Shown one piece after another: positions 281 to 62,934 of a stretch of 64,000 nt of DNA. The notes below the pieces were generated by a model that saw only the letters and a program-made list of their open reading frames with translations, was not told the origin of the DNA and did not search any database. Origin of the DNA: a virus; IMG/VR virus record IMGVR_UViG_3300025012_000045, positions 1 through 64,000 of that record. The stretch is one strand, 5' to 3'. The translations under genes and the position numbers were made by a program. Numbering within the stretch: the first letter of the stretch is position 1; the number at the start of each line of letters is the position of its first letter.

Positions 281-607
281 TCACTCTGGTATAATTTTTT
301 TTATATTATTAAATTTCCATTCTGTAGAAGTATATCTATCATTATGCGCAAATTCAATATTATTAATTTTATATTTTCTTAATATATGACCAATAAATTC
401 TAAAAACCATTTATCTAAAGTAACCCATTCATAATCAAGTCCAAACCTATCTGCAAATTTTCTTTTTATACCTTTCTGTGAATCAATATAATACCCCCTG
501 CAAATTTTATCATCTTCAAATAACGAGAATTTTCCTCCAATAATATCAAATCCTTTTGAATCTACATAACTTTTGATTTCCTCTTTACATTTTTTTGGTA
601 ATCTCAT
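281..607 (-). CDS. hypothetical protein
   Basis: 108-aa ORF overlapping the upstream gene by 4 nt. Confidence 0.7.
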   Translation of the reverse strand: MRLPKKCKEEIKSYVDSKGFDIIGGKFSLFEDDKICRGYYIDSQKGIKRKFADRFGLDYEWVTLDKWFLEFIGHILRKYKINNIEFAHNDRYTSTEWKFNNIKKIIPE

Positions 608-1170
608 AATAATTTTTCAATTTTTTCAATAGTTTCTTTTAATAATTTATTATTAAATCCATTTTTAAATTCGGTTTTTATACAATGTTTTTTATCAATG
701 TATTGAATAATATCATAATTAATATCATCATCAATAACCATGTAAATTGAATTTTCTTTATCATTATCTTTTAACCATTGTAAAATTTCCTTCCCCCTGG
801 GGCTGTCATGTAATCTAACTCTGTCTGTTTTTCCAATAATATTTGTTAAATATAGACCTTTGATATTGAATAAATCTTTTAATTCTTCAATTGTTCTTCC
901 TATTCTCCACGTACTTGAAATAACATAATTAACAATATATCCCTGTTCGTGGAAATATAATTGTAATTTATGGATGTTTGAAATACAATTTCTATCAAAG
1001 GGCCAATATTTCATAGACGTATTAATGAACGGTAAATTTTTTCTCTTTAATATTTCATTGAACTTGGTGGTTGGTTTTTCACCCATGTATTCTTTCCATA
1101 AATCATAAATGGAATTATTTGTTGCAATAACCCCATCAATATCCAAAAATATTATAATTTCTTTTTTCAT
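604..1170 (-). CDS. HAD-superfamily phosphatase (Swiss Army Knife RNA-repair-like HAD)
   Basis: IFLDIDGV (DxD), ISSTWR, RGKEILQWL, VIDDD motifs. Confidence 0.85.
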   Translation of the reverse strand: MKKEIIIFLDIDGVIATNNSIYDLWKEYMGEKPTTKFNEILKRKNLPFINTSMKYWPFDRNCISNIHKLQLYFHEQGYIVNYVISSTWRIGRTIEELKDLFNIKGLYLTNIIGKTDRVRLHDSPRGKEILQWLKDNDKENSIYMVIDDDINYDIIQYIDKKHCIKTEFKNGFNNKLLKETIEKIEKLL

Positions 1171-1448
1171 TTTTTGTATAAATCGTGAGTATCTATATCC
1201 GTATAAGTTTTAACTAATTTTCTGACATCTTGACCAACCTTTTCAACCATGTTTATTCTATCTTGAATATCCATTTTTTCATCGGATTGCAATTCCCAGA
1301 TTTTATCCATTAAAACGGACATAAATATTTTAATTCCTGCTCTAAATCCATCTATTGTATATTCTGGTTTTATTCTTGAATTTAGTTCAAATTCCCAAAG
1401 AGTGTCCTCTATTTCAGATAAAATCGGACTTAATTTTTTTCCTATCAT
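1167..1448 (-). CDS. hypothetical protein
   Basis: First ORF after an early promoter; overlaps the next gene by 4 nt. Confidence 0.7.
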   Translation of the reverse strand: MIGKKLSPILSEIEDTLWEFELNSRIKPEYTIDGFRAGIKIFMSVLMDKIWELQSDEKMDIQDRINMVEKVGQDVRKLVKTYTDIDTHDLYKK

Positions 1449-1470
1449 GCTATTTTTTATTTATTAATAA

Positions 1471-1505
1471 TACAAAGGTAAGTAAAATAATTGAAATAAA
1501 CAAAT
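1471..1505 (-). promoter_or_regulatory. Bacteroidota-type early promoter (TTTG...TACCTTTG)
   Basis: Minus strand reads ttattttactTACCTTTGta; near-identical copies at about 42431, 44204, 44758 and 63969. Confidence 0.75.
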
Positions 1506-1534
1506 ATTTTATCAATTTTTTTAATATAAGTAAA

Positions 1535-1542
1535 TATTTATA
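1535..1542 (+). promoter_or_regulatory. putative late promoter TATTTATA (representative copy)
   Basis: Motif recurs on the sense strand shortly upstream of many structural genes. Confidence 0.65.
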
Positions 1543-1549
1543 TAAAAAT

Positions 1550-2107
1550 ATGAAAATAGTAATCACAGAAAGTCAATTAAAACGAGTTATTGAAAATATT
1601 ATAAATGAAGTTTATGATGATATTAATGAACCAGCAAAATTGAAAAATGTTAATATAGAAAAAAGTGATGAAAAACAATTAATTATTAAATTTTCAACAA
1701 TATCTGGAAATAATTATGCTATTGAAGCATATGTTGATAATTTTGATAGTAAAGTGGGGGAAACAACAATAAAAACAATACAACAATATAATGAAAATAA
1801 ACCAGTATATTTTATAAGATTTGGAACTTATGAAAATAATAAAATAGATGTAAAACCATTAACACAGAATAAAGAATCATTAACTATTTTAAGAACAGTT
1901 TTTCATTATTTAAATGAATACATTAATAAATATGATGTAAGAGTTATATATTTTACGGCAGATTCGGATAGTAGAATAGTTGCATATAAAAGATTTATAG
2001 ATAAATTTGGTAAAGATTTTCTATTATTTAGTGAAAAAGATAGATTAGTTGGCAATATTGGTTTTGTTATTAAAAAGGAAGATTATGAAAAAGCAATACA
2101 AAAATAA
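1550..2107 (+). CDS. putative head-packaged protein, module gene A copy 1 (possibly GNAT-like)
   Basis: Probable start ATG 1550 (MKIVITESQLKRVIE); paralog of 30057-30629 and 32508-33071. Confidence 0.75.
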   Translation: MKIVITESQLKRVIENIINEVYDDINEPAKLKNVNIEKSDEKQLIIKFSTISGNNYAIEAYVDNFDSKVGETTIKTIQQYNENKPVYFIRFGTYENNKIDVKPLTQNKESLTILRTVFHYLNEYINKYDVRVIYFTADSDSRIVAYKRFIDKFGKDFLLFSEKDRLVGNIGFVIKKEDYEKAIQK

Positions 2108-4387: not shown

Positions 4388-4421
4388 GTTTTTTATCAAA
4401 AAATAGATATTTATAAATAAT

Positions 4422-4805
4422 ATGACTAGTAAATATTTATTTTATCCTTTTACAGGACAATATGAAAATGATAATAGTTTTAATGTTGCATTAATTAATT
4501 GTTGTGTTTATAAACAAATAGAAGTTCCATTATTAATCAATGTTGATAAAAATAAAGAAGAATATTTAAAAAAATTAAATCTTAAAAATGGGAATAACCT
4601 AAATAAGTTATTTCAATATGGGGGAATTGTTATAATAAATCATCCTTTATTAAATATTAATCATTCTTTTTTAATGATAAAAGATGAAGATAATACTTAT
4701 GTTTTGATTAATTCATTTATGGGCCCAAGGATATTATCTGGAATATCAAAAGAAAGAATAGAAAATACTTTTAATATCGTTGATGGATATTATTTTTCAA
4801 AGTGA
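4422..4805 (+). CDS. hypothetical protein
   Basis: ORF preceded by TATTTATA at 4408. Confidence 0.65.
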   Translation: MTSKYLFYPFTGQYENDNSFNVALINCCVYKQIEVPLLINVDKNKEEYLKKLNLKNGNNLNKLFQYGGIVIINHPLLNINHSFLMIKDEDNTYVLINSFMGPRILSGISKERIENTFNIVDGYYFSK

Positions 4806-4806
4806 A

Positions 4807-4863
4807 TGCTATTGACTTTTTAAAATATTATGTTTATCTTTGTATTATATATTAAAAAAATAA
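4807..4863 (+). promoter_or_regulatory. 57-bp early promoter, duplicated at 45276-45332
   Basis: tgctaTTGActtttt(a/c)aaatattatgttTATCTTTGtattatatattaaaaaaataa; one mismatch between copies. Confidence 0.8.
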
Positions 4864-5126
4864 CGTTTTAAGGGTTTATGAAGTTGGGGTTTAAAAATTC
4901 AAATGATATTAATGAAAACATAATGTAAAAAAATATTTTCCTGGACGGATTTGAACCGACATCTTCCTCTCAGTCTCGTAGTATCTTTTAAAAAGGATAT
5001 TATTAAAATTAAACAAAGAGGTGTTTTATCCGGTTAAACTACAGGAAAATATTTTTTTATTTCACAAAGATAACTGTTTAAAATGAAATTGTCAACCCCA
5101 ATTTCATAAACCCTTTGTTATCACAC
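4861..5126. repeat. attC-like imperfect inverted repeat
   Basis: TAAC-GTTTT-AAGGGTTTATGAAGTTGGGGTT ... AACCCCAATTTCATAAACCCTT-T-GTTATCACAC; homolog at 49313-49446. Confidence 0.7.
4936..5048 (-). ncRNA. tRNA-like RNA with a 46-nt expanded anticodon loop and no encoded CCA
   Basis: TTTCCTG TA GTTT AACCGGATA AAAC A CCTCT [46 nt] AGAGG AAGAT GTCGG TTCAAAT CCGTC CAGGAAA A; own TATCTTTG promoter at 5065-5072. Confidence 0.7.
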
Positions 5127-5159
5127 GTTTTAAAATCTTTTTTGTCAATCGGGATGATA

Positions 5160-5429
5160 TTATTTACAGAAATTCAATATCAATTCTTTTAGTTCAATGA
5201 AAAATTTGTATATTTCATATCTGTTAACAATAATCGCAATAATAATCGCAATAATCGCAAATAACTGTGTTGGTTTTTGTTTATGTAGTTTTGTTATTGG
5301 ATTAAATATAGTTGATTTTTTTAGTAGTTCAGATTCAGACGAATAGTCGGGGTTAACTGGTTTAATATTATTTCTGAATTTATTCCTTATACTTTCCAGA
5401 AATTTGTAATAAATGTCAAGTTGATTCAT
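5160..5429 (-). CDS. small membrane protein (island A cargo)
   Basis: One hydrophobic segment LFAIIAIIIAIIV; flanked by 17-bp direct repeats. Confidence 0.55.
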   Translation of the reverse strand: MNQLDIYYKFLESIRNKFRNNIKPVNPDYSSESELLKKSTIFNPITKLHKQKPTQLFAIIAIIIAIIVNRYEIYKFFIELKELILNFCK

Positions 5430-5671
5430 TTTTGTCAGTCGGGATATTTATAAGTATATGAAAATACATTCAATATCATATTCACCAAAATTAATAAAAC
5501 TTATTAAGATTTTTTATGATTATTTTAAAAAAGAAAATAAAATATGTAACTTATCCTAACTCTGTACCTGGAAAGAAAATCATAACTTATTATCTGTTTT
5601 TTGTACCAGTTTTAAGATTAACAGTAGAACATCAAAAACCAGATAATTATGATTTTAGAATACTATTAGAT

Positions 5672-8165: not shown

Positions 8166-8816
8166 TTATTTACGATATTTACTCAATATTTCAGCAGTTT
8201 CTTCACCAATTCTCTGCCAATCTTCTTCTGTTAAAGGTATTGGAACAAACTCTTTTTCACTTTCCTTTATTTCTTGTTTTGTTTTTTCAACAAATTTCCA
8301 GAATTTTCTTCCTGTTAATTTATTTATTCCTTGTTCATCAATATTATATCCGTTTTTTAATATTAATTCAATTATATTTTCAATCCTTTTTAAACTTTCT
8401 CCTTCTAAATCTTCATATAATTCAATAAAAAATATGTCTGGCTTTTCCATTTCTATTAATTTTTTAAACATTTCATTTATTTTTGATACAAATATCCTTT
8501 GATTTTGTAATTGTTTTGGTATATATTGTTTTGCTTCATCTCTTTTATAAATAGTTTTTACTGTTTTATTATTAACATCAGAAACAAGAAAATAATATAT
8601 TAATTCATTATATCCTTTACTTTTATCAAATCGTATAATCAAATCTAAATAATGAGTTTCATTATCATCTGGATCTTCCCCAATTGTAATAAAGGATATT
8701 TTATGCTCTTTATCCACTTTAGAATCATTACTAAATTCTGGAGAAACTTGCATTTCTTCTAATAATAATTTAGGATAATAAATTAATTCTTTAATCCTTT
8801 TTAATTGACTTTTCAT
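8166..8816 (-). CDS. putative head-packaged protein, paralog of 54580-55281
   Basis: QLKRIKELIYY..LLLEE leader; EEMQxS, TIYxR, LKNGY shared. Confidence 0.7.
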   Translation of the reverse strand: MKSQLKRIKELIYYPKLLLEEMQVSPEFSNDSKVDKEHKISFITIGEDPDDNETHYLDLIIRFDKSKGYNELIYYFLVSDVNNKTVKTIYKRDEAKQYIPKQLQNQRIFVSKINEMFKKLIEMEKPDIFFIELYEDLEGESLKRIENIIELILKNGYNIDEQGINKLTGRKFWKFVEKTKQEIKESEKEFVPIPLTEEDWQRIGEETAEILSKYRK

Positions 8817-11217
8817 TTTTAAATTTTTCTCTCCAATACTCTAATCTTTCTTTACCAATATCAACATATTCTTGATTTATTTCACAAGCATAAATATTTT
8901 CTTCCTTATATCCAGATTTTATTGCACCGATTACTTCACTCATTACCCCAGCAAAGGGAATATATAATTTTTGATCACACTCTTTAGGCAATTTAAACAA
9001 ATTCAAAATTCTATAATTTAATGATATTGGTTTTAAACAAATATGTTTATTTTTTTCTTCATTTAATCCTGCATTTTTTTCTTCTCCAGATACTTTTTTA
9101 CAATAATTCAATAAATCATGTTCTCCTTCTTCATATCGACTTATTGGGTTTAACCACTCAAAAAAATCATATAATAAATACTTATTTGACCCATAAATAG
9201 AATGAAAAATTTTATGACAATTTTCACATAATGTTATTCCATTATTTATATATAATCTATATTCAGGATAAGTTGAATAAGGTAAAATATGATGAGCAAC
9301 TAAATCACCTTCGGATTTTTTATAACATTTTTGACAAATATATTTATCTCTATAGAATATTTCTTTTCTCCAAATATTATATTCATAGCCTTCTCTTTTT
9401 TTTATTCTATCTTCTTCTAATTTTTCTGAATTCCAATTTGGGCTAGTTTCACCAGTTAATCCAAACATAGGATTTTTATCACCAGATCTAAATAATTTCT
9501 TTTCACAAGAATTACACCTAAATAGTTCTTCTTTTTTTATAAAAAATCTCCATTGGGGGGTATCAATTTTATTACAATATTTACACATATATTTTATTCT
9601 AATTGAAGAATTTTCAGGTAAGTCCCAAACCTCTATCCAAATTTTAGTATTAAATGGAACTCTTATTCCATTACTTTTTGTTTTTCTTTTTGGTATAATG
9701 TATCCATTTTTAATATATTCTTCTATTTTTCTACATCCTCTGTCTATTCTAATTTCCACTTGCTTAGAAATTAAAAATTCTTCATCATTTTTATCACATT
9801 TATGTAACACTCTTGAACATCCACCACTATCTCCATAAGTTTCTAAAAGATATTTATTGTCAAACTTACCGTATATTCCTCTATCACTTTGATATTCCCC
9901 CTGTGTTTTATTTCTTTTATGTTTATCTGGAGACATATATCCAGATTTTAATATTCCAGACTGGGTATTAAGAATTTGGGAAGTGCCATTATCCACAAAT
10001 ACTTGAGCTGGATATCTTCCAGATTCATGTAATTTTATATCTTTACCTTCATATCCACCCTCATATACATTTTTTGCTGCCTTATCTGTTTTCCAGCTAC
10101 CTTTTCCACCTAATCTTGGATCATCAACTTCTGGGTTAATTGGTACACGGTTTTCATTAATATTTACAACACTAGGAGATATTGTTGAATCTTCGTTAAA
10201 AGATAATAAATCATTTAAAACAGAACCATTTTTACATGGTTTATGAAAAATCATAATTGTCTCAACACATTGTTTAAATGGGGCAACCCCATATTTAAAT
10301 GAATCAAAACATTTTGCTAAATCACTAGCTGGTAAAGTTATATCAAATTCTTCTTCACCAGAAAATGACCACACATTTCCTTTTGTTAATCCTGCCTTAC
10401 CCCTTCCAATTATTTCCCTTTCAAGTTCTTCAATATTATCAAATGGGGCACTTAATAATTCACATAATTTATTAAATTGTTCTATTGTTGGGGTAGTTTT
10501 TCCTGTTATCCAATTATGAACTCGTCCAGTCAATCCATCAGTTTTAGAAAGAAAATGTTTTGATATATCATTTTGATTTAAATTTAATTCTTTCATTCTT
10601 TTTTCCATCCACTTTCCAAACCAAACATAATTTTTTCCTCCTCTTTTATCAATCATTTTTCCAGCATCAACCCCTTTTGGCATTGAATTTATAAAATACC
10701 AATATAGTGATTGTTGAATTTCAAATCCATTTTTAACAGCATAATATTGAAATGCTGGGAGTTGTCTATCAATTCCATAAATTATTGTAAACCCTCCATG
10801 TTTTAATATTCTAAAACTTTCTTTAAAAAATAAATCAAGTGTATTTTCATCAAACCCATCCCATTTATTCATGAAATCTTTTGGTTTCCCTTCTATAATA
10901 AATCTTCCTGTTTCTTTATCTATGATCCATTTTGAAGATAAATTATAAGGTACATCACTAAATATAGTATTAAAATAAAAATCTGGATATGTTTTTATAT
11001 CATCAAAAACATTATCACATTTAATATTAACAGATTTATTTATTTTTTTAAATACAGGAATATTACCATGTTCTAATTCATATTCTTTATTATCTTTTAA
11101 ATTTTTCAACAAATACTTATCATTATCTAATTTTTTTAAATATTGCCCCTCATTACCTTTTTTAGTAATAAATAAATCACCTTCATTGAGGTCTTTTAAT
11201 AAAACTTGACTTTCCAT
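8791..11217 (-). CDS. N6A/N4C DNA methyltransferase with in-frame XRE-HTH and HNH insertions
   Basis: SDVPY catalytic motif, RILKHGG, H..LKPISL, IPFAG SAM motif; inserted HTH; CQKC..AHHI..NGITLCENCHKIFH HNH. Confidence 0.85.
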   Translation of the reverse strand: MESQVLLKDLNEGDLFITKKGNEGQYLKKLDNDKYLLKNLKDNKEYELEHGNIPVFKKINKSVNIKCDNVFDDIKTYPDFYFNTIFSDVPYNLSSKWIIDKETGRFIIEGKPKDFMNKWDGFDENTLDLFFKESFRILKHGGFTIIYGIDRQLPAFQYYAVKNGFEIQQSLYWYFINSMPKGVDAGKMIDKRGGKNYVWFGKWMEKRMKELNLNQNDISKHFLSKTDGLTGRVHNWITGKTTPTIEQFNKLCELLSAPFDNIEELEREIIGRGKAGLTKGNVWSFSGEEEFDITLPASDLAKCFDSFKYGVAPFKQCVETIMIFHKPCKNGSVLNDLLSFNEDSTISPSVVNINENRVPINPEVDDPRLGGKGSWKTDKAAKNVYEGGYEGKDIKLHESGRYPAQVFVDNGTSQILNTQSGILKSGYMSPDKHKRNKTQGEYQSDRGIYGKFDNKYLLETYGDSGGCSRVLHKCDKNDEEFLISKQVEIRIDRGCRKIEEYIKNGYIIPKRKTKSNGIRVPFNTKIWIEVWDLPENSSIRIKYMCKYCNKIDTPQWRFFIKKEELFRCNSCEKKLFRSGDKNPMFGLTGETSPNWNSEKLEEDRIKKREGYEYNIWRKEIFYRDKYICQKCYKKSEGDLVAHHILPYSTYPEYRLYINNGITLCENCHKIFHSIYGSNKYLLYDFFEWLNPISRYEEGEHDLLNYCKKVSGEEKNAGLNEEKNKHICLKPISLNYRILNLFKLPKECDQKLYIPFAGVMSEVIGAIKSGYKEENIYACEINQEYVDIGKERLEYWREKFKNEKSIKKD

Positions 11218-11493: not shown

Positions 11494-11563
11494 AACTATT
11501 AATAATTATTAGTTGAAAATATAAAAACAAATATAAACATAATATTTTAAAAAATCAATAAAA

Positions 11564-14080
11564 TTAACCACATTTGGAAAATTTGCATTGTAAACATCGT
11601 AAACACCCCTCTTCTCTTATCAAACTATCTTGTTTACATTCTGGACATTTTTTATCACTTAATTCTTCATTATTATCAATATATCTTCTTAACGTTCTTG
11701 ATATTGCTTTTCCAAAAGAAACAATCGTACCTTCTGACTTATCCAGTTGTTCAACAACATATTTTATGTCAGCGCCATGTCTTAATCCAGTTGAAATCAT
11801 TCTGGTTAATGTTTCATGTTCATCTTTATCAAAGTGGGAGGTTAAATCTTCCAATATAAATCCATTGTCCAATTCCAGATCATAATATCCTTTTTTTATT
11901 TTTATTAATTTTCCTTTTTTAACAGTTTGTGGAATATGAATTTTCTTTAATTTTAAACCAAAAACTTCATATGGATCTCCTTCATATAATCCAACAATTA
12001 CTAACCATTTTTTTCCAAGTGCAGTAACATTATAAATATCGCATTCAAGTTCCTTTGGTCTTTTAGGTGCTTGAGTTTTATTAATTTTATTATTATTTTT
12101 TTTAACTTCTGATAATACTGTTGTCATTGTCCCTGCACGATATGTTGTACATCCTTTTATTGTTCCTGTTTCATATGCATTTAAATATACTTTTTTAAAA
12201 TTTTCATAACTATAATCATTAGGTAAGTTTATAGTTTTTGAAATTGATGAATCTATGTATTTAGCAAATATTGCCATGGGGTTAATGTGTTCATCAATAG
12301 TTAATTCAGTAGTTGTTGCAGCCCATTTTGCATTTGGATCCCATTCATTTTTTTCTTCTAAATATCTTACAGCATAATCTTTTACTTTAGTTTCTTTTGT
12401 TAATCCTCTATTTTTATCATATTTCCAAATATTATTATTAAACTCTGTAAATAAAATACTTTCATCCCCTTCTTTTTTCCATTTCCAAATTGTACCATTT
12501 GTATTAAATTTTTTATTATCCCAATCAATATTTTTCGGTTCTAACACTCCTTCTGGTGGAAACGGTTGCATTGTTGTTCTAATATATTCTGGCATAAATA
12601 TTGGTTCTAACCCACCAGAAACATTATTAACATAAACTGAAGAATTACCAGTTGGTTGAATTGATAATAAATGTGAGTTTCTTATTCCATATTTTTCAAT
12701 TAATTCTTTTGTTTCTTTAAATAATACTTTAACAAATTTGCTTTTTAAATATTTTTCTTTATCAAATAATAGAAAATGCCCTTTTTCTTTAGATAATAAA
12801 GCAGATGATTCATATGCACAATTACTAATAAAAGTCATTAATTTTTCTGTTAATTTTAATGCTTTATCAGAACCATATCTAATTTTCATCATCATAAGTG
12901 CAGATCCATAACCTAAAATACCCAACCCTATTCTTCGTTTATTTTGTAAATTTTCTTTTTGAATATCTAAAGGGACGTATGTTATATCATTAACATTATC
13001 AAGAAATCTAACCGATATTGGAATAATTTTTTTTAATTTATTATAATCCCAATCATTATTTTCTTTATTAATAAATTGAGTTAAATTTAAAGAGCCCAAT
13101 AAACAAACTGCACCAATAGGAAGACATTGTTCACCACAAGGATTCACTGCATCAATATTTTCACAATAATACAAATTATTCAACCTATTAATCGTATCAA
13201 TAAAAATTATTCCTGGTTCATTTCTATTATATGTAGATTTCATTATAAGATCCAAAAGTTCATTAGCATTTTTATATTCTTTATAAACTTTAACAGGATA
13301 TCCTTTTTGTTTCCAGTTATCTAAATTACCTTCCCATTCTTTTTTATATTTTTCTTTTATCTCATCAGAATACTCATAATCTGGAAATTCTAATTTCCAT
13401 TCTTTATTTTCTTTAACTGAATTCATAAAATTATCAGTTATCAATACTGACATATTAAATTTAGTTAATCTTCCTGGAGTTTGTTTTGCAATTATAAATT
13501 CTTCAATATCTGGGTGCCAACAATACATTGTTACCATCTGGGCTCCTTTTCTTATTTTAACTTTAGCTTTTCTATTTATATTGTTTTTCCCGCTGCCTTC
13601 TGTAATTACAGCACTTTGTGTATCCCACATATCTAACATCTTAACTGAACCAGGAGATTCATTTCCAATTCCGCCAATAAATGAACCCCTCGGTCTCATT
13701 GTACTAGCACAAAAACCATAACCCCCTTCTGATTTTAAAATCAACGCTTGTCTTCTTAATTCAGCTAAAATTCCTTCCATTGAATCATTATCTTCTCCTT
13801 GAAAACCTGATACAAAACAATTGATCAAACTAGTTCCTTTTAATCCTGTTCCAGCATTTGATGTAATTCTACCCCCAGGAACAAATTTAAAATCATGTAG
13901 AATATCTAAAAACTTTTCAGTCCAATATTCTTTATCTTTTTCAACAGAAGCAATATTTTTAGCAACTCTTAAAAACGTATCATTTATTATTTCGTCCCCA
14001 TATTTATAAGTTTGTTCATAAATTTCTTTGCTAAAATCATCTATAAATTTAGTTTCTCTTTCTATTAACACTTCTTCCAT
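11564..14080 (-). CDS. nrdJ: class II (adenosylcobalamin-dependent) ribonucleotide reductase
   Basis: PGGRI, NCFV, NPCGEQ, RRIGLG, QPTG motifs; C-terminal TSCPD-like domain and zinc ribbon. Confidence 0.93.
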   Translation of the reverse strand: MEEVLIERETKFIDDFSKEIYEQTYKYGDEIINDTFLRVAKNIASVEKDKEYWTEKFLDILHDFKFVPGGRITSNAGTGLKGTSLINCFVSGFQGEDNDSMEGILAELRRQALILKSEGGYGFCASTMRPRGSFIGGIGNESPGSVKMLDMWDTQSAVITEGSGKNNINRKAKVKIRKGAQMVTMYCWHPDIEEFIIAKQTPGRLTKFNMSVLITDNFMNSVKENKEWKLEFPDYEYSDEIKEKYKKEWEGNLDNWKQKGYPVKVYKEYKNANELLDLIMKSTYNRNEPGIIFIDTINRLNNLYYCENIDAVNPCGEQCLPIGAVCLLGSLNLTQFINKENNDWDYNKLKKIIPISVRFLDNVNDITYVPLDIQKENLQNKRRIGLGILGYGSALMMMKIRYGSDKALKLTEKLMTFISNCAYESSALLSKEKGHFLLFDKEKYLKSKFVKVLFKETKELIEKYGIRNSHLLSIQPTGNSSVYVNNVSGGLEPIFMPEYIRTTMQPFPPEGVLEPKNIDWDNKKFNTNGTIWKWKKEGDESILFTEFNNNIWKYDKNRGLTKETKVKDYAVRYLEEKNEWDPNAKWAATTTELTIDEHINPMAIFAKYIDSSISKTINLPNDYSYENFKKVYLNAYETGTIKGCTTYRAGTMTTVLSEVKKNNNKINKTQAPKRPKELECDIYNVTALGKKWLVIVGLYEGDPYEVFGLKLKKIHIPQTVKKGKLIKIKKGYYDLELDNGFILEDLTSHFDKDEHETLTRMISTGLRHGADIKYVVEQLDKSEGTIVSFGKAISRTLRRYIDNNEELSDKKCPECKQDSLIREEGCLRCLQCKFSKCG

Positions 14081-14179: not shown

Positions 14180-15595
14180 TTAATTATTTATTTCTTTTTG
14201 TTTCATTCTTTCTATTGCACTCAAAACTCTTTCTCTGTTTGTTGAAGATTCACTATCAGATTTTTCATTTTCATAATTAAATGTTGTGATAATTTTTTTT
14301 GATGCAGTGTCAATATAAACTCTTGAATTATCAAAAGTACAATCCTGAAATATAACTCCGTCTCTTCCAAATCTTGATTTAAGTATGGCAATAGTTGCTA
14401 AACCAAGTTCTTTTTGTTGTAAACTTTTAGCAATAGAAATTACTAAATGTCCCACTTGAGCTCTTTTAATTGAGCCCCCCATTTGGTCCAATTTAACAAT
14501 ATCACCTGATGTGGATGATCTATTTCCTTGTAACCCGCACCAACCCACCATATCCAAATCATATAACATTGATTCAAATGATCTAATAACTGATCCCTCT
14601 GCAACATTAATATCATCTATTCTTTTATCTGGTAATACACAATCCAAATAATCTAAAATTACAATATCTGGTTTAAACCCTATTGATATTAATCTTTTAA
14701 TAAAATTTTTAATTTTATTCATAGATACAGTACCAGAAGGAAATCTTTTTATTTGTAATATACCATCACTAAATTTAGGATTTTCTTTTTTTATTTCATC
14801 TAGTATCTTAATTACTTTCTCTTTATTTTTTGATAATTCGTTTAATTCAATTCCAGTCCAACAAGATAAATGTTTTCTTCTTATTTGTATATCACTATCC
14901 TCAAAAATTAATTGTAAAACATTATATCCCATATTCTTTCCTGTATTGGCTATTTTAGTAAGTATTGTGGTTTTTCCGGCACCAGTCCCAGCAAAAATAA
15001 CACCCAATTCTCCTTTTGATAACCCACCATCTATTGTTTTATCAATTCCTTTTATTCCTGTTGGAATTGGTCTTCTAAAATTTTCTGCCAAAACATCTTC
15101 TAACCCTGACATAACATCAATTCCATCATCATTTTCTTCACCAATATTTAGAGTTTCCCTTAATTTTTCTTCTAACTTATCATAATTTTCAAACTCACCC
15201 CTTTCCAATACATTATTACAATATTGTAGTGCTTTTTTCAATGATTGTTGTTTGCAAAATTTAAGTGATTTATCTTGAATAAATTTACTATCTTCTAATG
15301 ATTGATTTTTAATTAATTTAATTAAAGAATGTAAATATTCTTTTTGAATGTCATCCTTAATCTCAATTGAAATCATTTGCATTATATTATCATATGTAGG
15401 AATATTCTCATATTTTTCATAATAATCTTTTATAAAGACAACAATTTGTCTATAATTCATATTATCAAAATATTTTGTCTTAATTACATTAAGAATTCTA
15501 TCTGCAAATTTACGATCTGAAAATATCTGAGTCAATAATTTTAATTGAAATGTTTGACCTAAAAAACTAAATGATTGTATGTTTTTTTGTTGCAT
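14180..15595 (-). CDS. replicative DnaB-like helicase (T4 gp41-like)
   Basis: Walker A GTGAGKT, DYLD, QGNR, KSRFG. Confidence 0.92.
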   Translation of the reverse strand: MQQKNIQSFSFLGQTFQLKLLTQIFSDRKFADRILNVIKTKYFDNMNYRQIVVFIKDYYEKYENIPTYDNIMQMISIEIKDDIQKEYLHSLIKLIKNQSLEDSKFIQDKSLKFCKQQSLKKALQYCNNVLERGEFENYDKLEEKLRETLNIGEENDDGIDVMSGLEDVLAENFRRPIPTGIKGIDKTIDGGLSKGELGVIFAGTGAGKTTILTKIANTGKNMGYNVLQLIFEDSDIQIRRKHLSCWTGIELNELSKNKEKVIKILDEIKKENPKFSDGILQIKRFPSGTVSMNKIKNFIKRLISIGFKPDIVILDYLDCVLPDKRIDDINVAEGSVIRSFESMLYDLDMVGWCGLQGNRSSTSGDIVKLDQMGGSIKRAQVGHLVISIAKSLQQKELGLATIAILKSRFGRDGVIFQDCTFDNSRVYIDTASKKIITTFNYENEKSDSESSTNRERVLSAIERMKQKEINN

Positions 15596-29782: not shown

Positions 29783-30076
29783 TTAATTATTTTTATATTT
29801 ATCATATAACAATTCATGAGTAACAATTAATGTTAAATCACCAATTGTTTTTAATAGTTCTAAATCTTCATCCCAAATATTAATATCCAAATCGCTCTCA
29901 ACTTCACATAAATAAGCCAAAATTTCTCCGAATTCATCACCTTCTAATTTATCTGATTTTTTAAATTTTTTATTTTTACTTATAAAATATTTTTTTAAAT
30001 ATTCATAACACTCATCATAAGTTAAATTATCTATTTTTTTTAATTCCGATAAAATTTTATTTAATTGATCTATCAT
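29783..30076 (-). CDS. ACP-like protein lacking the Ppant serine, module gene B copy 2
   Basis: EVESDLDINIWDEDLELLKTIGDL. Confidence 0.65.
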   Translation of the reverse strand: MIDQLNKILSELKKIDNLTYDECYEYLKKYFISKNKKFKKSDKLEGDEFGEILAYLCEVESDLDINIWDEDLELLKTIGDLTLIVTHELLYDKYKNN

Positions 30077-30629
30077 AATCTTCTTTTTTAATCATAAAAC
30101 TTATATTACCCACTAACCTATCTTTTTCATTAAAAAGATAAAAATCATAAAAATGTTTATTAATTATATATTTATATACTTCAATTTTTTTTTCTCCTTC
30201 TGATATAAAATAAATAATTCTTACATCATATTTATCAATATATTTTTTTAAATAATGAAAAACAACTCTAAATATTAAAAATTGTTCATGTTCATTTGTT
30301 ATTATTCTGGCATCAATTTTACCATCTTTATAAATTCCAAATCTTACTTTATATACTGGTTTATTCCCATTATATTGTTGTATTGTTTTTATTGTTGTTT
30401 CTCCAAGTTTACTATCAAAATTATCAATAATTGCCTCTAAAACATAATTATTCATATTTGTAGAAAATGTTATAACTATTTCTTTTCCATTATCCTTTAA
30501 TATTTTTACATTTTTTATATCATTTTCTGAAACATTAAGATCAGAAAATATTTCTGATAATATTATATTTTCATCAATAATATTCTCTATTAATCTTTTA
30601 AATTGATTTTCTGTTAATTTTATTTTCAT
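30057..30629 (-). CDS. module gene A copy 2
   Basis: MKIKLTENQFKRLIE; DNFDSKxGETTIKTIQQYN, EKDRLVGNI. Confidence 0.75.
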   Translation of the reverse strand: MKIKLTENQFKRLIENIIDENIILSEIFSDLNVSENDIKNVKILKDNGKEIVITFSTNMNNYVLEAIIDNFDSKLGETTIKTIQQYNGNKPVYKVRFGIYKDGKIDARIITNEHEQFLIFRVVFHYLKKYIDKYDVRIIYFISEGEKKIEVYKYIINKHFYDFYLFNEKDRLVGNISFMIKKEDYDRSIK

Positions 30630-32245: not shown

Positions 32246-32533
32246 TTACCTTTTTTTATTTCTTATCAATTCATGAGTAACAATTAATGTCAAATCATTA
32301 ATTGTTTTTAATCCTTTTAAATCTTCATCCCAAATATTAATATTTAAATCTTTCTCCAACATACAAAATAACCATAAAATACCATATCCGTCTCCATCTT
32401 TTAATTTATTTGATTTTTTAAAATTCATAATTTCTGACATTATTTCTTTTAAAATATCATAACATTTATTATATGTTAAATTATCTATTTTTTTTAATTT
32501 TAATATTTTATTTTTTATTTGTTGATCTGTCAT
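32246..32533 (-). CDS. ACP-like protein lacking the Ppant serine, module gene B copy 3
   Basis: MLEKDLNINIWDEDLKGLKTINDL. Confidence 0.65.
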   Translation of the reverse strand: MTDQQIKNKILKLKKIDNLTYNKCYDILKEIMSEIMNFKKSNKLKDGDGYGILWLFCMLEKDLNINIWDEDLKGLKTINDLTLIVTHELIRNKKR

Positions 32534-33071
32534 AATCTTCTTTTTTAATCATAAAACTTATATTACCTATTAATCTATCTTTTTCATTAAAAAAATAAAA
32601 ATTTTTAAAGTGTTCATTAATTATGTATTGGTACAATCTAATTTTTTGCTCTCCTTCAGATATAAAATAAATAATTCTTATATCATATTTATCAATATAT
32701 TTTTTTAAATAATTAAAAACAACTTTTAATATTAAATATATTTCATTATAATTTGTTATAGTTCTGGCATCAATTTTACCATTCTTATAAATTCCAAATC
32801 TTACTTTATAAACTGGTTTATTTTCATTATATTGTTGTATTGTTTTTATTGTTGTTTTTCCAACTTTACTATCAAAATTATCTATAACTCCTTCTAAAAC
32901 ATAATTATCTATATTCGTAGAAAAAGTTATAACTATTTCATTTTCATTATCTTTTAATATTTTTACATTTTGTATTTCGTTTTTAGAGATGTTAAGGTCA
33001 GAAAATATTTCTGATATTATTATATTTTCAATTAATCTTTTAAATTGGGATTCTGTTATTAATATTTTCAT
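32508..33071 (-). CDS. module gene A copy 3
   Basis: MKILITESQFKRLIE; highly similar to 30057-30629. Confidence 0.75.
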   Translation of the reverse strand: MKILITESQFKRLIENIIISEIFSDLNISKNEIQNVKILKDNENEIVITFSTNIDNYVLEGVIDNFDSKVGKTTIKTIQQYNENKPVYKVRFGIYKNGKIDARTITNYNEIYLILKVVFNYLKKYIDKYDIRIIYFISEGEQKIRLYQYIINEHFKNFYFFNEKDRLIGNISFMIKKEDYDRSTNKK

Positions 33072-36145: not shown

Positions 36146-36344
36146 TAAAAGTATTTTTATATAAATATTTGTTTTTTTAATTTATTTTACTTATCTTTGT
36201 ATTATTAAAATGTAAAACATGGAATCAAAAAGAAAATGGTATAAAAATAAAAAAAATCACTTGGGGCTTGACTTTGTCATTTATTATGTTTATCTTTGTA
36301 TTTTAAAATTAAATAATTTATTAACTAAAACAAAAAATAATAAA

Positions 36345-45275: not shown

Positions 45276-45332
45276 TGCTATTGACTTTTTCAAATATTAT
45301 GTTTATCTTTGTATTATATATTAAAAAAATAA
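45276..45332 (+). promoter_or_regulatory. 57-bp early promoter, copy 2
   Basis: Matches 4807-4863 with one mismatch. Confidence 0.8.
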
Positions 45333-49248: not shown

Positions 49249-49312
49249 ACACCTATAAATATACAGACAAGGAATTTTTTAATATTCTGACAATAACGGA
49301 GGACATTAAAAC

Positions 49313-49446
49313 GTGTGATAACAAAGGGTTTAAGAAATGGTTTAGGATTGTGTGTGAGGTTATTTTGAATTATTCACTTACTTTTGTGTTTATATGACAG
49401 TTTTGTAATTTTTTAAACCACCACTTCTCAAACCCTTAAAACGTTA
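49313..49446. repeat. attC-like imperfect inverted repeat, copy 2
   Basis: GTGTGATAAC-A-AAGGGTTTAAGAAATGG ... CCACTTCTCAAACCCTT-AAAAC-GTTA. Confidence 0.7.
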
Positions 49447-49511
49447 TTTTTTGTTAAATATTATTTACTTTTATTATTTTATTAGTATTTTTGTATTAAA
49501 TAAGTAATAAA

Positions 49512-50354: not shown

Positions 50355-51674
50355 ACATATTCTTTTAATTAAGAATACATATTATTAATAATGAAACTTG
50401 TAGAACGACATATTAGATTAAATGATAAAGCAATAAAAGATATTTGTTTTAAATCAGCTCGTCTTTATAATTTCTGCAATTATTATAAACGACAGGCATA
50501 TTTTGGTAAAATAAGTAAATTCGGGGAATATGAATTATCAAAATTACTTGGTGAATTTAATCAGGAAGATTATAGAAATTTACCAGCACAAACATCACAA
50601 CAAATAATAAAATTACTTTTTAAAAACTGGAAATCATATTTTAAAGCATTAAAAGAATATAAGAAGTATCCAAGTAAATTTAAAGGAAAACCCAAGCCAC
50701 CAAAATATAAAAAGAAAGATGGATATTTTATTTGTATTTTTACCAATCAGCAAATAAAATTAAAAGATAAGAATATTCATTTTCCAAAACAAACAAATAT
50801 TAAACCATTAAAAACTAAAGTAAATAATATACAACAAGTTAGGATAATTCCACAAGCAACTTGTTTTATAATAGAAATAATTTATAATAAAAAGGAGGTA
50901 AAACATGAAAACATAAAAGAAGAAAATATTTTAAGCATTGATCTGGGAGTAAATAATCTTATCACAGCAATAGATAATGTCGGTAATTACCCTTTCATTA
51001 TTAACGGTAAAGGATTAAAATCTATAAATCAATATTTTAATAAAAAGAAAGCTAAGCTAATGAGTTATGTTGGAGACAAAGGTACTTCAAACAAAATAAA
51101 AAAATTGACATTTGACAGAAATAATAAGATTGAAAATGCCCTACACCAGGTGAGCAGTTTTATACTTAAATACTGTTTAAAGAATAATATTGGGACAGTT
51201 ATTATTGGCAAAAATGAACAATGGAAACAGAAAATAAATATTGGAACAAAAAACAATCAGAATTTTGTTTTTATTCCCCATTCTAAACTTATTAATAAAA
51301 TAAAATATAAGTTGGAACTAAATAATATTAAACTTATTGAGCAGGAAGAAAGTTATACAAGCAAATGCGATAATCTAGTATTAGAACCAATACAAAAACA
51401 AAAAGTATATCTTGGCAAAAGAATAAAACGAGGCTTGTTTTTAAGCAGCATAGGTAAGGTAATAAATGCAGATGTTAATGGTGCAATTGGAATAATGTTA
51501 AAATCAAAAGTAATTCCTGAGTGTGAAAGATTTATTCAGAACATAAGGAATACGGGGTTGGGGTTTAATCCATATAGAATTAATTCTATAAAATCATTTG
51601 AACTCAAATGTAATGTTTGATGTAAAAATGAATAACCTCTAACATGTTCTTTTTAATTAAAGAACACATATTAT
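50355..51674 (+). mobile_element. non-autonomous IS200/IS605 (IS1341-type) element
   Basis: tnpB only, bracketed by homologous hairpins at 50355-50385 and 51642-51674. Confidence 0.65.
50391..51620 (+). CDS. tnpB: TnpB RNA-guided endonuclease
   Basis: LYN..Y, PKPPKYK, SIDLGVNNL, EESYTSK, INADVNGA. Confidence 0.92.
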   Translation: MKLVERHIRLNDKAIKDICFKSARLYNFCNYYKRQAYFGKISKFGEYELSKLLGEFNQEDYRNLPAQTSQQIIKLLFKNWKSYFKALKEYKKYPSKFKGKPKPPKYKKKDGYFICIFTNQQIKLKDKNIHFPKQTNIKPLKTKVNNIQQVRIIPQATCFIIEIIYNKKEVKHENIKEENILSIDLGVNNLITAIDNVGNYPFIINGKGLKSINQYFNKKKAKLMSYVGDKGTSNKIKKLTFDRNNKIENALHQVSSFILKYCLKNNIGTVIIGKNEQWKQKINIGTKNNQNFVFIPHSKLINKIKYKLELNNIKLIEQEESYTSKCDNLVLEPIQKQKVYLGKRIKRGLFLSSIGKVINADVNGAIGIMLKSKVIPECERFIQNIRNTGLGFNPYRINSIKSFELKCNV

Positions 51675-61929: not shown

Positions 61930-62934
61930 TTATTTTCTCGTATCATAATGTTTATTAATTATTTTAAACGATCCATTTTTGTGTTTTATAACAACCCCTT
62001 CAAATGGTATTTCATCAATTTTTGTAATTACTGAAGAATAGTTTTCAATTAATTCTTTTGATAACATAACATTTTCTTTCAATAAAGGAACAATTTCAAT
62101 GTCTAATTCCTTACAAACATCAATATAATAAAATTTTGATCCCTTATTTTCATATTTTTTTTCTTTTAAATTATAAACAGAAAAACATGCAAAGGATTTT
62201 TGTAATTTTGAATGTGGGTTATATTCTCCTTTTTGTATTCCTTGTCCATAACATTCACCCCTTAATGCTAAACTAACCTTATGTTTTTCACAAAAATTGA
62301 TTAATTTATCTTTTATTTTTGGAATGTGCAAAGTATAATTATTTATTGATTCTGGTTTAATTTCAAGATTTCTTCCACAAACACCAAAAACTTTATCGTC
62401 AAAATTATAATAAAATGTACAACTTGTTCCATCAATTTTTAATGTAACATCAACAATTTCTAAAAAAGGTATATTTTCAATATTTTCGTAACGTTCTTCA
62501 TCTGTTGGTCCAAGACCAAAAGGTAAATAACCTTTTGCTTGTAAATCTTGTGGTATTGGTGGTTCATATTTTATAACTCCAAGTTCTTTTGAATAATCTT
62601 TCCCCATTTCTAAATTTGATGGTAATAAATCTTTAATTAAATCAAGAGGAACAATAATCCCTTCTGACCACTCATTTCTTAATTTTATTGCCTTAACTCT
62701 TTTGGGGGAATATTTTTTATATGTTTCAGCCCATTTGGAATCCGGTAAAATTGTATCTGGCTGAATAAATATAATTTCATTTCCAGATTTATATTGTTCT
62801 TTTGGAATGATACATTGAAATCCAAGAACAGTTGCAATTTCCAATTTATCAGCATTTGGATGCTCTGATATTTTTTGAATTAGCTCAAGAGATGATAATT
62901 TTTTCATATTTAAATAATTATTTAAATTAGTCAT
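61930..62934 (-). CDS. RNA ligase (DRB0094 / Rnl2-like family)
   Basis: HPNADKLE N-domain, KIDGTS adenylation motif, GECYG, EGVV, FKIIN. Confidence 0.9.
   Translation of the reverse strand: MTNLNNYLNMKKLSSLELIQKISEHPNADKLEIATVLGFQCIIPKEQYKSGNEIIFIQPDTILPDSKWAETYKKYSPKRVKAIKLRNEWSEGIIVPLDLIKDLLPSNLEMGKDYSKELGVIKYEPPIPQDLQAKGYLPFGLGPTDEERYENIENIPFLEIVDVTLKIDGTSCTFYYNFDDKVFGVCGRNLEIKPESINNYTLHIPKIKDKLINFCEKHKVSLALRGECYGQGIQKGEYNPHSKLQKSFACFSVYNLKEKKYENKGSKFYYIDVCKELDIEIVPLLKENVMLSKELIENYSSVITKIDEIPFEGVVIKHKNGSFKIINKHYDTRK

Follow-up and report, generated by a model that had tools for sequence, protein, structure and literature searches.

The window analyzed here (64,000 nucleotides) spans the first 64 kb of an IMG/VR virus contig of 100 kb, which CheckV estimates to be about 30% complete; the G+C content is 25%. 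Its replication genes encode a ribonucleotide reductase, a DnaB-like helicase, a gp32-like protein, a RecA/UvsX-like protein, and a 5'-3' exonuclease, and a TnpB-like gene is also among its gene content. The stretch was found in 14 runs, all of them DNA from groundwater or soil metagenomes and none of them RNA. Only one tRNA was found in the 100-kb contig, an Asn-type gene at 4936-5048 on the minus strand. Asparagine accounts for 8.4% of the phage codons, mostly as AAU (1,153 AAU versus 94 AAC), which ranks second among all codons, and this heavy use of AAU is a plain reason for the phage to carry a tRNA-Asn. The tRNA and its surrounding elements are arranged as follows.

4870-4901, unstranded: left arm of the outer inverted repeat I1 (32 nt, 88% complementary), which encloses the promoter and the tRNA
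4926-5059, minus strand: putative whole transcription unit for a 134-nt RNA, with start and end predicted from inverted repeat I2 and the fold
4936-5048, minus strand: tRNA gene body of the Asn(GUU) type (Rfam RF00005; ARAGORN -i)
4972-5010, minus strand: 39-nt insert under the 37/38 placement convention, with boundaries that slide within the loop 4971-5016 (ARAGORN -i; excision enumeration)
4973-4976, minus strand: AGAC at the 3' end of the insert, predicted from pair probabilities to pair with G34-U37 (5014-5011)
5012-5014, minus strand: anticodon GUU (positions 34-36), followed by U37 at 5011 (alignment; excision enumeration)
5065-5095, minus strand: promoter-like TTGACA-N17-TATCTTTG, directly upstream of the tRNA (motif match; sigma-70 scan)
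5084-5115, unstranded: right arm of I1 (88% complementary), which holds the -35/-33 box of the tRNA promoter

The locus is a genuine phage gene for an asparagine-type tRNA with the anticodon GUU. It matched Rfam RF00005 at 50.0 bits (cut-off, 29) over model positions 1 to 71, with 42 nt unaligned in the anticodon loop, and ARAGORN with the -i option called a tRNA-Asn(GTT) with a 39-nt intron. In default mode ARAGORN called no tRNA at the locus, because introns are ignored in that mode. The acceptor end has a U1-A72 pair and the discriminator A73 (4936), after which CCA is not encoded. The D-loop, AACCGGAUA, bears G18 G19 and A20, the T-loop is UUCAAAU, and the T-stem contains a single U50xU64 mismatch. 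The anticodon stem CCUCU/AGAGG encloses 46 nt instead of the usual 7. In total, 20 of the 21 stem pairs are intact, and from our reading of the alignment the tertiary-contact nucleotides are all present (U8, A14, the A15-U48 Levitt pair, G18 G19, A21, U54 U55 C56, and A58). The first-pass annotation had described a minus-strand cloverleaf with a canonical D-arm, a TTCAAAT T-loop, one T-stem mismatch, an anticodon loop widened to 46 nt, and no CCA; the ARAGORN and covariance-model results bear out this description. A class II reading with a long variable arm was rejected. The 3' strand AGAGG directly precedes a 5-nt variable loop, and thus the extra bases belong to the anticodon arm.

The insert resembles the background in composition, with a G+C content of 23% versus 25% for the genome, and the anticodon arm with the insert is weakly structured (-9 kcal/mol, z of -2.0). 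When the cloverleaf was enforced, GUUU/AGAC pairing was predicted with a probability of 0.83 to 0.97, in line with the extra GTTT/AGAC pairing claimed earlier, and this pairing would lock the anticodon in a helix. An inner hairpin, UAUC.UUUU/AAAAGAUA, had been proposed as well (TATC.TTTT in the DNA). Under the same constraint it proved to be a minor alternative (probability, ~0.2), with UUUUAA/UUAAAA favored (~0.6).

Every single excision was enumerated and a 5-bp stem with a 7-nt loop was sought. The 5-bp stem is made perfect again by one excision, which also leaves a loop of 7 nt with U33 and GUU, and position 37 of this product is U. In fact, position 37 is U under every stem- and loop-restoring excision (loops UUGUUUA, UUGUUUG, UUGUCUG, and UUGACUG), which argues against an ordinary decoding tRNA. 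Among the 101 intron-less tRNAs of the huge phages LR756501.1 and LR756502.1, none has a pyrimidine at this position (86 A and 15 G). A simple insertion cannot create U37, so it either predated the insert or mutated later.

Self-splicing by group I ribozymes is the only route of tRNA intron removal generally accepted for bacteria and their viruses. A group I intron was rejected here. The insert is 39 to 42 nt long, versus approximately 200 nt or more for the catalytic core P3-P9, and this size puts self-splicing out of the question; an Rfam search of 4800-5200 gave no intron match even at an E value of ≤1. A bulge-helix-bulge intron was also rejected, since the required two 3-nt bulges around a 4-bp helix are absent at the splice sites. 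The predicted arm consists of 6 bp, a 1x1 U-U mismatch, 4 bp, and a 2x9 internal loop, and the best 3-4-3 threading at 37/38, checked by hand, yields a mismatched central helix with no outer helix around it, and contains one G-A mismatch and two wobble pairs. Two further candidates were discarded: a mini-intron shaped like a tRNA and removed by RNase P and RNase Z, as the insert has no acceptor/T-arm-like minihelix, and a small repeated mobile element, as a second copy of the insert is absent from the contig.

The second unusual feature of the gene is the helix that closes it. Inverted repeat I2 pairs 4926-4943 with 5042-5059 over 18 nt with 100% complementarity, so the perfect 18-bp duplex reported to extend the acceptor stem is indeed there. 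The helix runs 11 bp past the acceptor stem (chance of ~3e-6 from base composition), while the leader-trailer extension in 105 tRNAs of the two huge phages is 0 to 1 bp. A U7 run lies in its 3' strand (4933-4927), and the 134-nt unit folds at -33.2 kcal/mol (z of -4.2). RNase P acts poorly on RNAs whose leader and trailer are fully paired.

Upstream of the helix, TTGACA-N17-TATCTTTG at 5095-5065 (minus strand) is an exact instance of a motif that is over-represented in the window, with 11 matches versus 4.4 expected and none of 100 shuffles reaching 11. The motif occurs at ≥9 sites in the 100-kb contig, and the element at 5095-5065 was also listed by a sigma-70 consensus scan. The earlier claim that the tRNA has its own promoter is thereby strengthened to an exact copy of a recurrent phage motif. 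We take its boxes to be those of a Bacteroidota-type promoter, with a -33 TTG and a -7 TAnnTTTG. A start a few bases past the -7 box would fall on the first base of the 18-bp helix. With this spacing and the U7 run of the 3' strand, the unit appears to constitute a self-contained gene with an RNA product of approximately 134 nt, whose start and end we infer.

A recurrent promoter element, TTGACTTTTTnAAATATTATGTTTATCTTTG, of approximately 31 to 50 nt and with Bacteroidota-like -33/-7 boxes, occurs at the following places.

4812-4842, plus strand: TTGACTTTTTnAAATATTATGTTTATCTTTG element in the window
11528-11558, minus strand: TTGACTTTTTnAAATATTATGTTTATCTTTG element in the window
36268-36298, plus strand: TTGACTTTTTnAAATATTATGTTTATCTTTG element in the window
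45281-45311, plus strand: TTGACTTTTTnAAATATTATGTTTATCTTTG element in the window
68931, 80576, and 88882, plus strand: TTGACTTTTTnAAATATTATGTTTATCTTTG elements in the contig

In groundwater runs, 4807-4863 was joined to many different contigs, and its depth reached ~420 versus 5 to 25 alongside; from this depth and the many joins, TTGACTTTTTnAAATATTATGTTTATCTTTG is a high-copy element in this phage or its relatives. The copy at 4812-4842 (+) faces the antisense of the tRNA and of the island in which the tRNA lies (island A), with no ORF downstream. This orientation would make sense if the segment 4860-6895 can invert.

The promoter and tRNA are enclosed by the outer hairpin, which has one homolog in the contig, at 49305-49447, at the end of a second island (island B). 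The hairpins at 4860-5130 and 49305-49447 have common flanks (AAAACGTGTGATAAC ... AAACCCTTAAAACGTTAT), but the tRNA module occurs only in the first; the second copy has a shortened promoter-like piece where the module would sit. Thus, the tRNA and inner helix were gained by one copy or lost from the other, and the role of the outer hairpin does not hinge on the tRNA. All seven occurrences of the 10-mer GTTATCACAC in the 100-kb contig fall within the two islands (5117, 6024, 6595, 6760, 45450, 45912, and 49313). The TnpB-like gene, at 50391-51620 (+), has OrfB_IS605 and Cas12f1-like TNB domains and lies approximately 1 kb downstream of the second hairpin. The tRNA unit itself sits between the convergent genes 4422-4805 (+) and 5160-5429 (-), with an A-run and a U-run on either side of the helix, and a terminator consensus scan found no terminator-like site there.

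Removal of the insert by proteins would call for enzymes that cut, heal, and seal RNA. The contig encodes two candidates.

604-1170, minus strand: HAD_SAK_2 phosphatase of the RNA-repair type, a candidate end-healing enzyme (PF18143, E value of 1.6e-18)
61930-62934, minus strand: ATP-dependent RNA ligase, NgrRnl/Rnl5-like, a candidate sealing enzyme (PF09414 and PHA02142 OB domain)

An RNA ligase, a HAD phosphatase, and a Tpt1-like gene had all been reported for the window; the first two are present, and the third is not. The ligase has a full-length match to the Naegleria RNA ligase 5cot (E value of 2.8e-27), and we take it to be of the nick-sealing Rnl5 type, that is, a duplex-nick sealer by family. 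It lies 57 kb from the tRNA, and the phosphatase lies 4 kb away. Tpt1 (PF01885) had no match at an E value of ≤1 in the whole 100-kb contig (~30% of the genome). Over the same contig, there was no match to EndA (PF01974) or RtcB (PF01139), and no AAA_33/PNK-like kinase, 2H phosphoesterase, RNase III, CCA-adding enzyme, or class IIb synthetase-like gene (PF00152) was found. A synthetase-like partner next door was considered and rejected, given the lack of a PF00152 match in the contig and the nature of the neighboring 478-aa protein, an uncharacterized viral protein with no relatives in viral or metagenome contigs. No family of dedicated aminoacyl-transfer partners occurs among the tRNA's neighbors.

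Searches of phage records, IMG/VR, JGI metagenomes, and GTDB genomes yielded no homolog of the tRNA, either carrying or lacking the insert. A DNA similarity search of 4400-5500 against 50,697 phage records found nothing, and exact-pattern scans of viral contigs (3' half, D-arm, and hypothetical spliced anticodon arm) gave nothing or unrelated sequences. A gapped D-loop...T-loop pattern returned only unrelated tRNAs or chance matches from the metagenome and genome collections, and a search for the locus based on the ribonucleotide reductase gave one distant match only. Among contigs from four DNA runs, the tRNA was covered in one run, with no joint across the insert. In DNA contigs of a second groundwater study covering 4836-5119, three places differed, all outside 4926-5059, which is a weak, non-significant sign of constraint on the 134-nt unit.

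The published huge phages LR756502.1 (642 kb) and LR756501.1 (735 kb) were used for comparison; their ribonucleotide reductases are 67% and 57% identical, respectively, to that of the window. The phage relatives of the helicase are all ≤29% identical. With a close reductase and a helicase without a near phage relative, kinship to the two phages is limited. The reductase (11564-14080, minus strand) and the helicase (14180-15595, minus strand) are adjacent, and the contrast between their sequences indicates that the genome is mosaic or that the reductase was transferred.

LR756502.1 and LR756501.1 have 50 and 66 tRNA matches, a few of which are over-long. Two of these, in LR756501.1, have a unique best cut.

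207096-207213, minus strand of LR756501.1: over-long tRNA-Arg(UCU), locus L038 (excision enumeration)
~173818-173957, minus strand of LR756501.1: over-long tRNA-Met(CAU), locus L049 (excision enumeration)

In both, the ACGGC/GCCGU stem is perfect and the loop normal after a cut at 29/30 (ACG|...|GC). The inserts, of 45 and 68 nt, respectively, are homologous, with a common hairpin and an ACAGCAA tail, and are the only two members in the genome; they look like a mobile intron family carrying its own flanking stem. Two more comparison tRNAs, with 16- and 31-nt inserts, yield canonical loops with A37 upon excision. The 16-nt insert of locus L041 in LR756501.1 (204246-204333, minus strand) leaves either Lys(UUU) or the ochre-suppressor anticodon UUA, depending on the cut chosen. 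A fifth over-long LR756501.1 tRNA (~363,400) gives a canonical arm under no excision. The comparison-phage inserts sit in the anticodon arm, except for one in the variable region, and with their clean excisions they behave like true introns. The window tRNA resembles these genes in that inserts of 16 to 68 nt in the anticodon arm can be removed by one clean excision to leave a 5-bp stem and a 7-nt loop. It differs in that their excised loops are canonical with A37, whereas its own has U37; in that the two homologous inserts lie at 29/30, inside the stem; and in its leader-trailer helix, which their tRNAs lack. The inserts show no sequence similarity to that of the window, and the ribonucleotide reductase is all that is common to the phages.

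Short inserts in the anticodon region are already known from giant phages; this case is set apart by the U37 loop and the closed 18-bp helix. As reported previously, Lak megaphages carry tRNA introns that were termed "enigmatic" (Devoto et al. 2019, Nat Microbiol, PMC6784885), and we found no paper after 2019 on how they are removed. In the Lak phages, as here, a short non-ribozyme insert of tens of nucleotides interrupts the anticodon region of a tRNA gene that is intact apart from it, and the phage is very large, has ~25% G+C, and probably infects Bacteroidota. Across cohorts the Lak introns are conserved, and alleles lacking the intron exist, whereas the window insert has no relative that we found. 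Moreover, the window product has U37, and its gene, solitary and with a promoter of its own, is closed by an 18-bp leader-trailer helix. A tRNA shape is seen in one Lak intron and not in the window insert.

Archaeal and eukaryal tRNA introns likewise lie next to 37/38, show anticodon-intron pairing, and need proteins for their removal. They use a 3-4-3 bulge-helix-bulge, EndA/Sen, and RtcB or Trl1 plus Tpt1, whereas the bulge-helix-bulge is missing from the window insert and EndA, RtcB, and Tpt1 are absent from the contig; in addition, the host of the window phage is bacterial. Group I introns of bacteria and phages also interrupt the anticodon loop of bacterial-type tRNAs, but at ~200 nt or more they are far longer than 39 to 42 nt.

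The explanation that we favor most, although tentatively and at less than even confidence, is a tRNA-Asn whose insert is removed by proteins. Transcription from the gene's own phage promoter would give a precursor of ~134 nt bounded by the 18-bp leader-trailer helix, which could not decode as made, its anticodon being paired with the 3' end of the insert. The long helix would be opened by RNase III, followed by RNase P and RNase Z or exonucleases. A protein endonuclease not of the bulge-helix-bulge type would cut out the insert, a ligase, either the phage Rnl5-like enzyme or one of the host, would seal the halves, and CCA would be added. The finished tRNA would then feed the phage's very heavy AAU codon use.

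Several observations support removal of the insert by proteins. The tRNA body fits the full model, with 20 of 21 stem pairs and the tertiary contacts kept, and the insert is confined to the anticodon loop, where one excision restores the stem, the loop size, U33, and GUU. The promoter motif is exact, the tRNA is the sole one in 100 kb, and there is demand for AAU decoding. Inserts recur in the two huge phages and in Lak phages (PMC6784885), and the same contig encodes both an RNA ligase and a HAD phosphatase of the repair type. On the other side, U37 together with the closed 18-bp helix weakens the case for an ordinary tRNA with an intron, as do the A73 discriminator and the T-stem U-U mismatch. 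There is no bulge-helix-bulge; EndA, RtcB, Tpt1, the kinase, the 2H enzyme, RNase III, and the CCA-adding enzyme are absent from the contig; and the ligase, presumably a duplex-nick sealer by family, is 57 kb off. A closed helix is poor for RNase P, the insert has background composition and weak structure, and homologs with or without the insert were not found in the collections searched.

The first-pass annotation had offered two explanations, protein splicing or a decoy. The genuine tRNA body, the non-self-splicing insert, the promoter, the ligase, and the HAD phosphatase speak for this pair of readings; against them stand the absence of Tpt1, EndA, and RtcB from the contig and a ligase that is presumably of the nick-sealing NgrRnl/Rnl5 type and is unlinked to the tRNA.

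It is somewhat unlikely that the RNA is never spliced and is instead a stable, hairpin-closed, tRNA-shaped molecule with an Asn-type body and a locked anticodon, which would stay off the ribosome and occupy a host protein that handles tRNA-Asn-type (GUN) tRNAs, for example an anticodon nuclease, a modification enzyme, or a synthetase. The unavoidable U37 fits well with such an RNA, since none of 101 normal phage tRNAs has a pyrimidine there and a pyrimidine at 37 marks the Staphylococcus non-proteinogenic tRNA-Gly, which is kept off the ribosome (PMC6103715). That tRNA, like the one in the window, has a good body apart from this position, and of the non-proteinogenic traits, a pyrimidine at 37 and a weakened EF-Tu-binding T-stem, the window tRNA shows the first as U37, while its U50xU64 mismatch may or may not weaken the T-stem. 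The Staphylococcus tRNAs have 7-nt loops and a partner in cell-wall synthesis, whereas no partner is evident for the window tRNA. The predicted pairing of the anticodon (0.83 to 0.97) and the gene's own promoter are also consistent with an unspliced product, and so is the 18-bp closing helix, unique in comparison with 105 tRNAs, which would hinder RNase P and protect the ends. Phage tRNAs are, moreover, known to counter tRNA-cleaving defenses (PMC10264068). However, no homolog turned up in the collections searched to give a signal of conservation or covariation, and the insert, weak in structure and of background composition, differs from known tRNA-like RNAs, whose domains are folded. No gene for a partner adjoins, as the neighbors are uncharacterized viral proteins and a class IIb synthetase-like gene is absent, and codon use simply explains why a decoding tRNA-Asn is carried. 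The more specific proposal, that the 134-nt unit is itself the finished product, a phage-made non-decoding tRNA-Asn mimic that would soak up or mislead a host enzyme attacking or handling tRNAs with GUN anticodons during infection, we regard as unlikely.

Equally doubtful is a young pseudogene, in which an AT-rich slip or insertion in the anticodon loop, together with substitutions of A37 by U and of one T-stem base, would have killed a tRNA-Asn. Huge phages tolerate some junk, and the palindrome could persist as a terminator or recombination hairpin. Three defects do occur together (the insert, U37, and U50xU64), the insert is of background composition (23% versus 25% G+C) with a fold z of about -2, the island is variable, with a homologous hairpin at 49305-49447 that has no tRNA, and relatives were not found in the collections searched. 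Decay of this kind is at odds with a gene in which 20 of 21 stem pairs and all the tertiary-contact bases are intact, the promoter boxes match exactly, and the 11-bp leader-trailer extension is perfect. The three strain differences all fall outside the 134-nt unit, and the comparison-phage inserts, which cluster in the anticodon arm with one in the variable region, follow a pattern of tolerated introns rather than of random damage.

It is very improbable that the DNA or RNA palindrome itself is what matters, either ending transcription in both directions where gene blocks converge or serving as an island recombination hairpin, with the tRNA as incidental cargo: the position between 4422-4805 (+) and 5160-5429 (-), the flanking A-run and U-run, and the one homolog of the outer arms at the end of the second island would suit it, but the consensus scan showed no terminator-like site, and the tRNA-less copy in island B means that a hairpin function leaves the tRNA, its promoter, and the inner 18-bp helix unexplained. 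The remaining probability belongs to something not yet thought of.

Short tRNA inserts in giant phages, noted in 2019, imply either a protein-based splicing route not yet described or tRNA-shaped RNAs with other jobs. As a single sequence, this locus does not by itself settle whether the insert is spliced. It is a compact, self-contained test case, however, in which the promoter, the 134-nt unit, and the U-run can be expressed as they stand. Because of U37 and the closed acceptor helix, protein splicing and a stable unspliced RNA predict different and easily measured RNA products.

Two features of the window's other genes were also observed. DUF6934 occurs on three paralogs, at 1355-2107 (+), 30057-30629 (-), and 32508-33071 (-). 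The product of 8791-11217 (-) is 808 aa long and contains an internal HNH endonuclease domain (residues 628 to 671).
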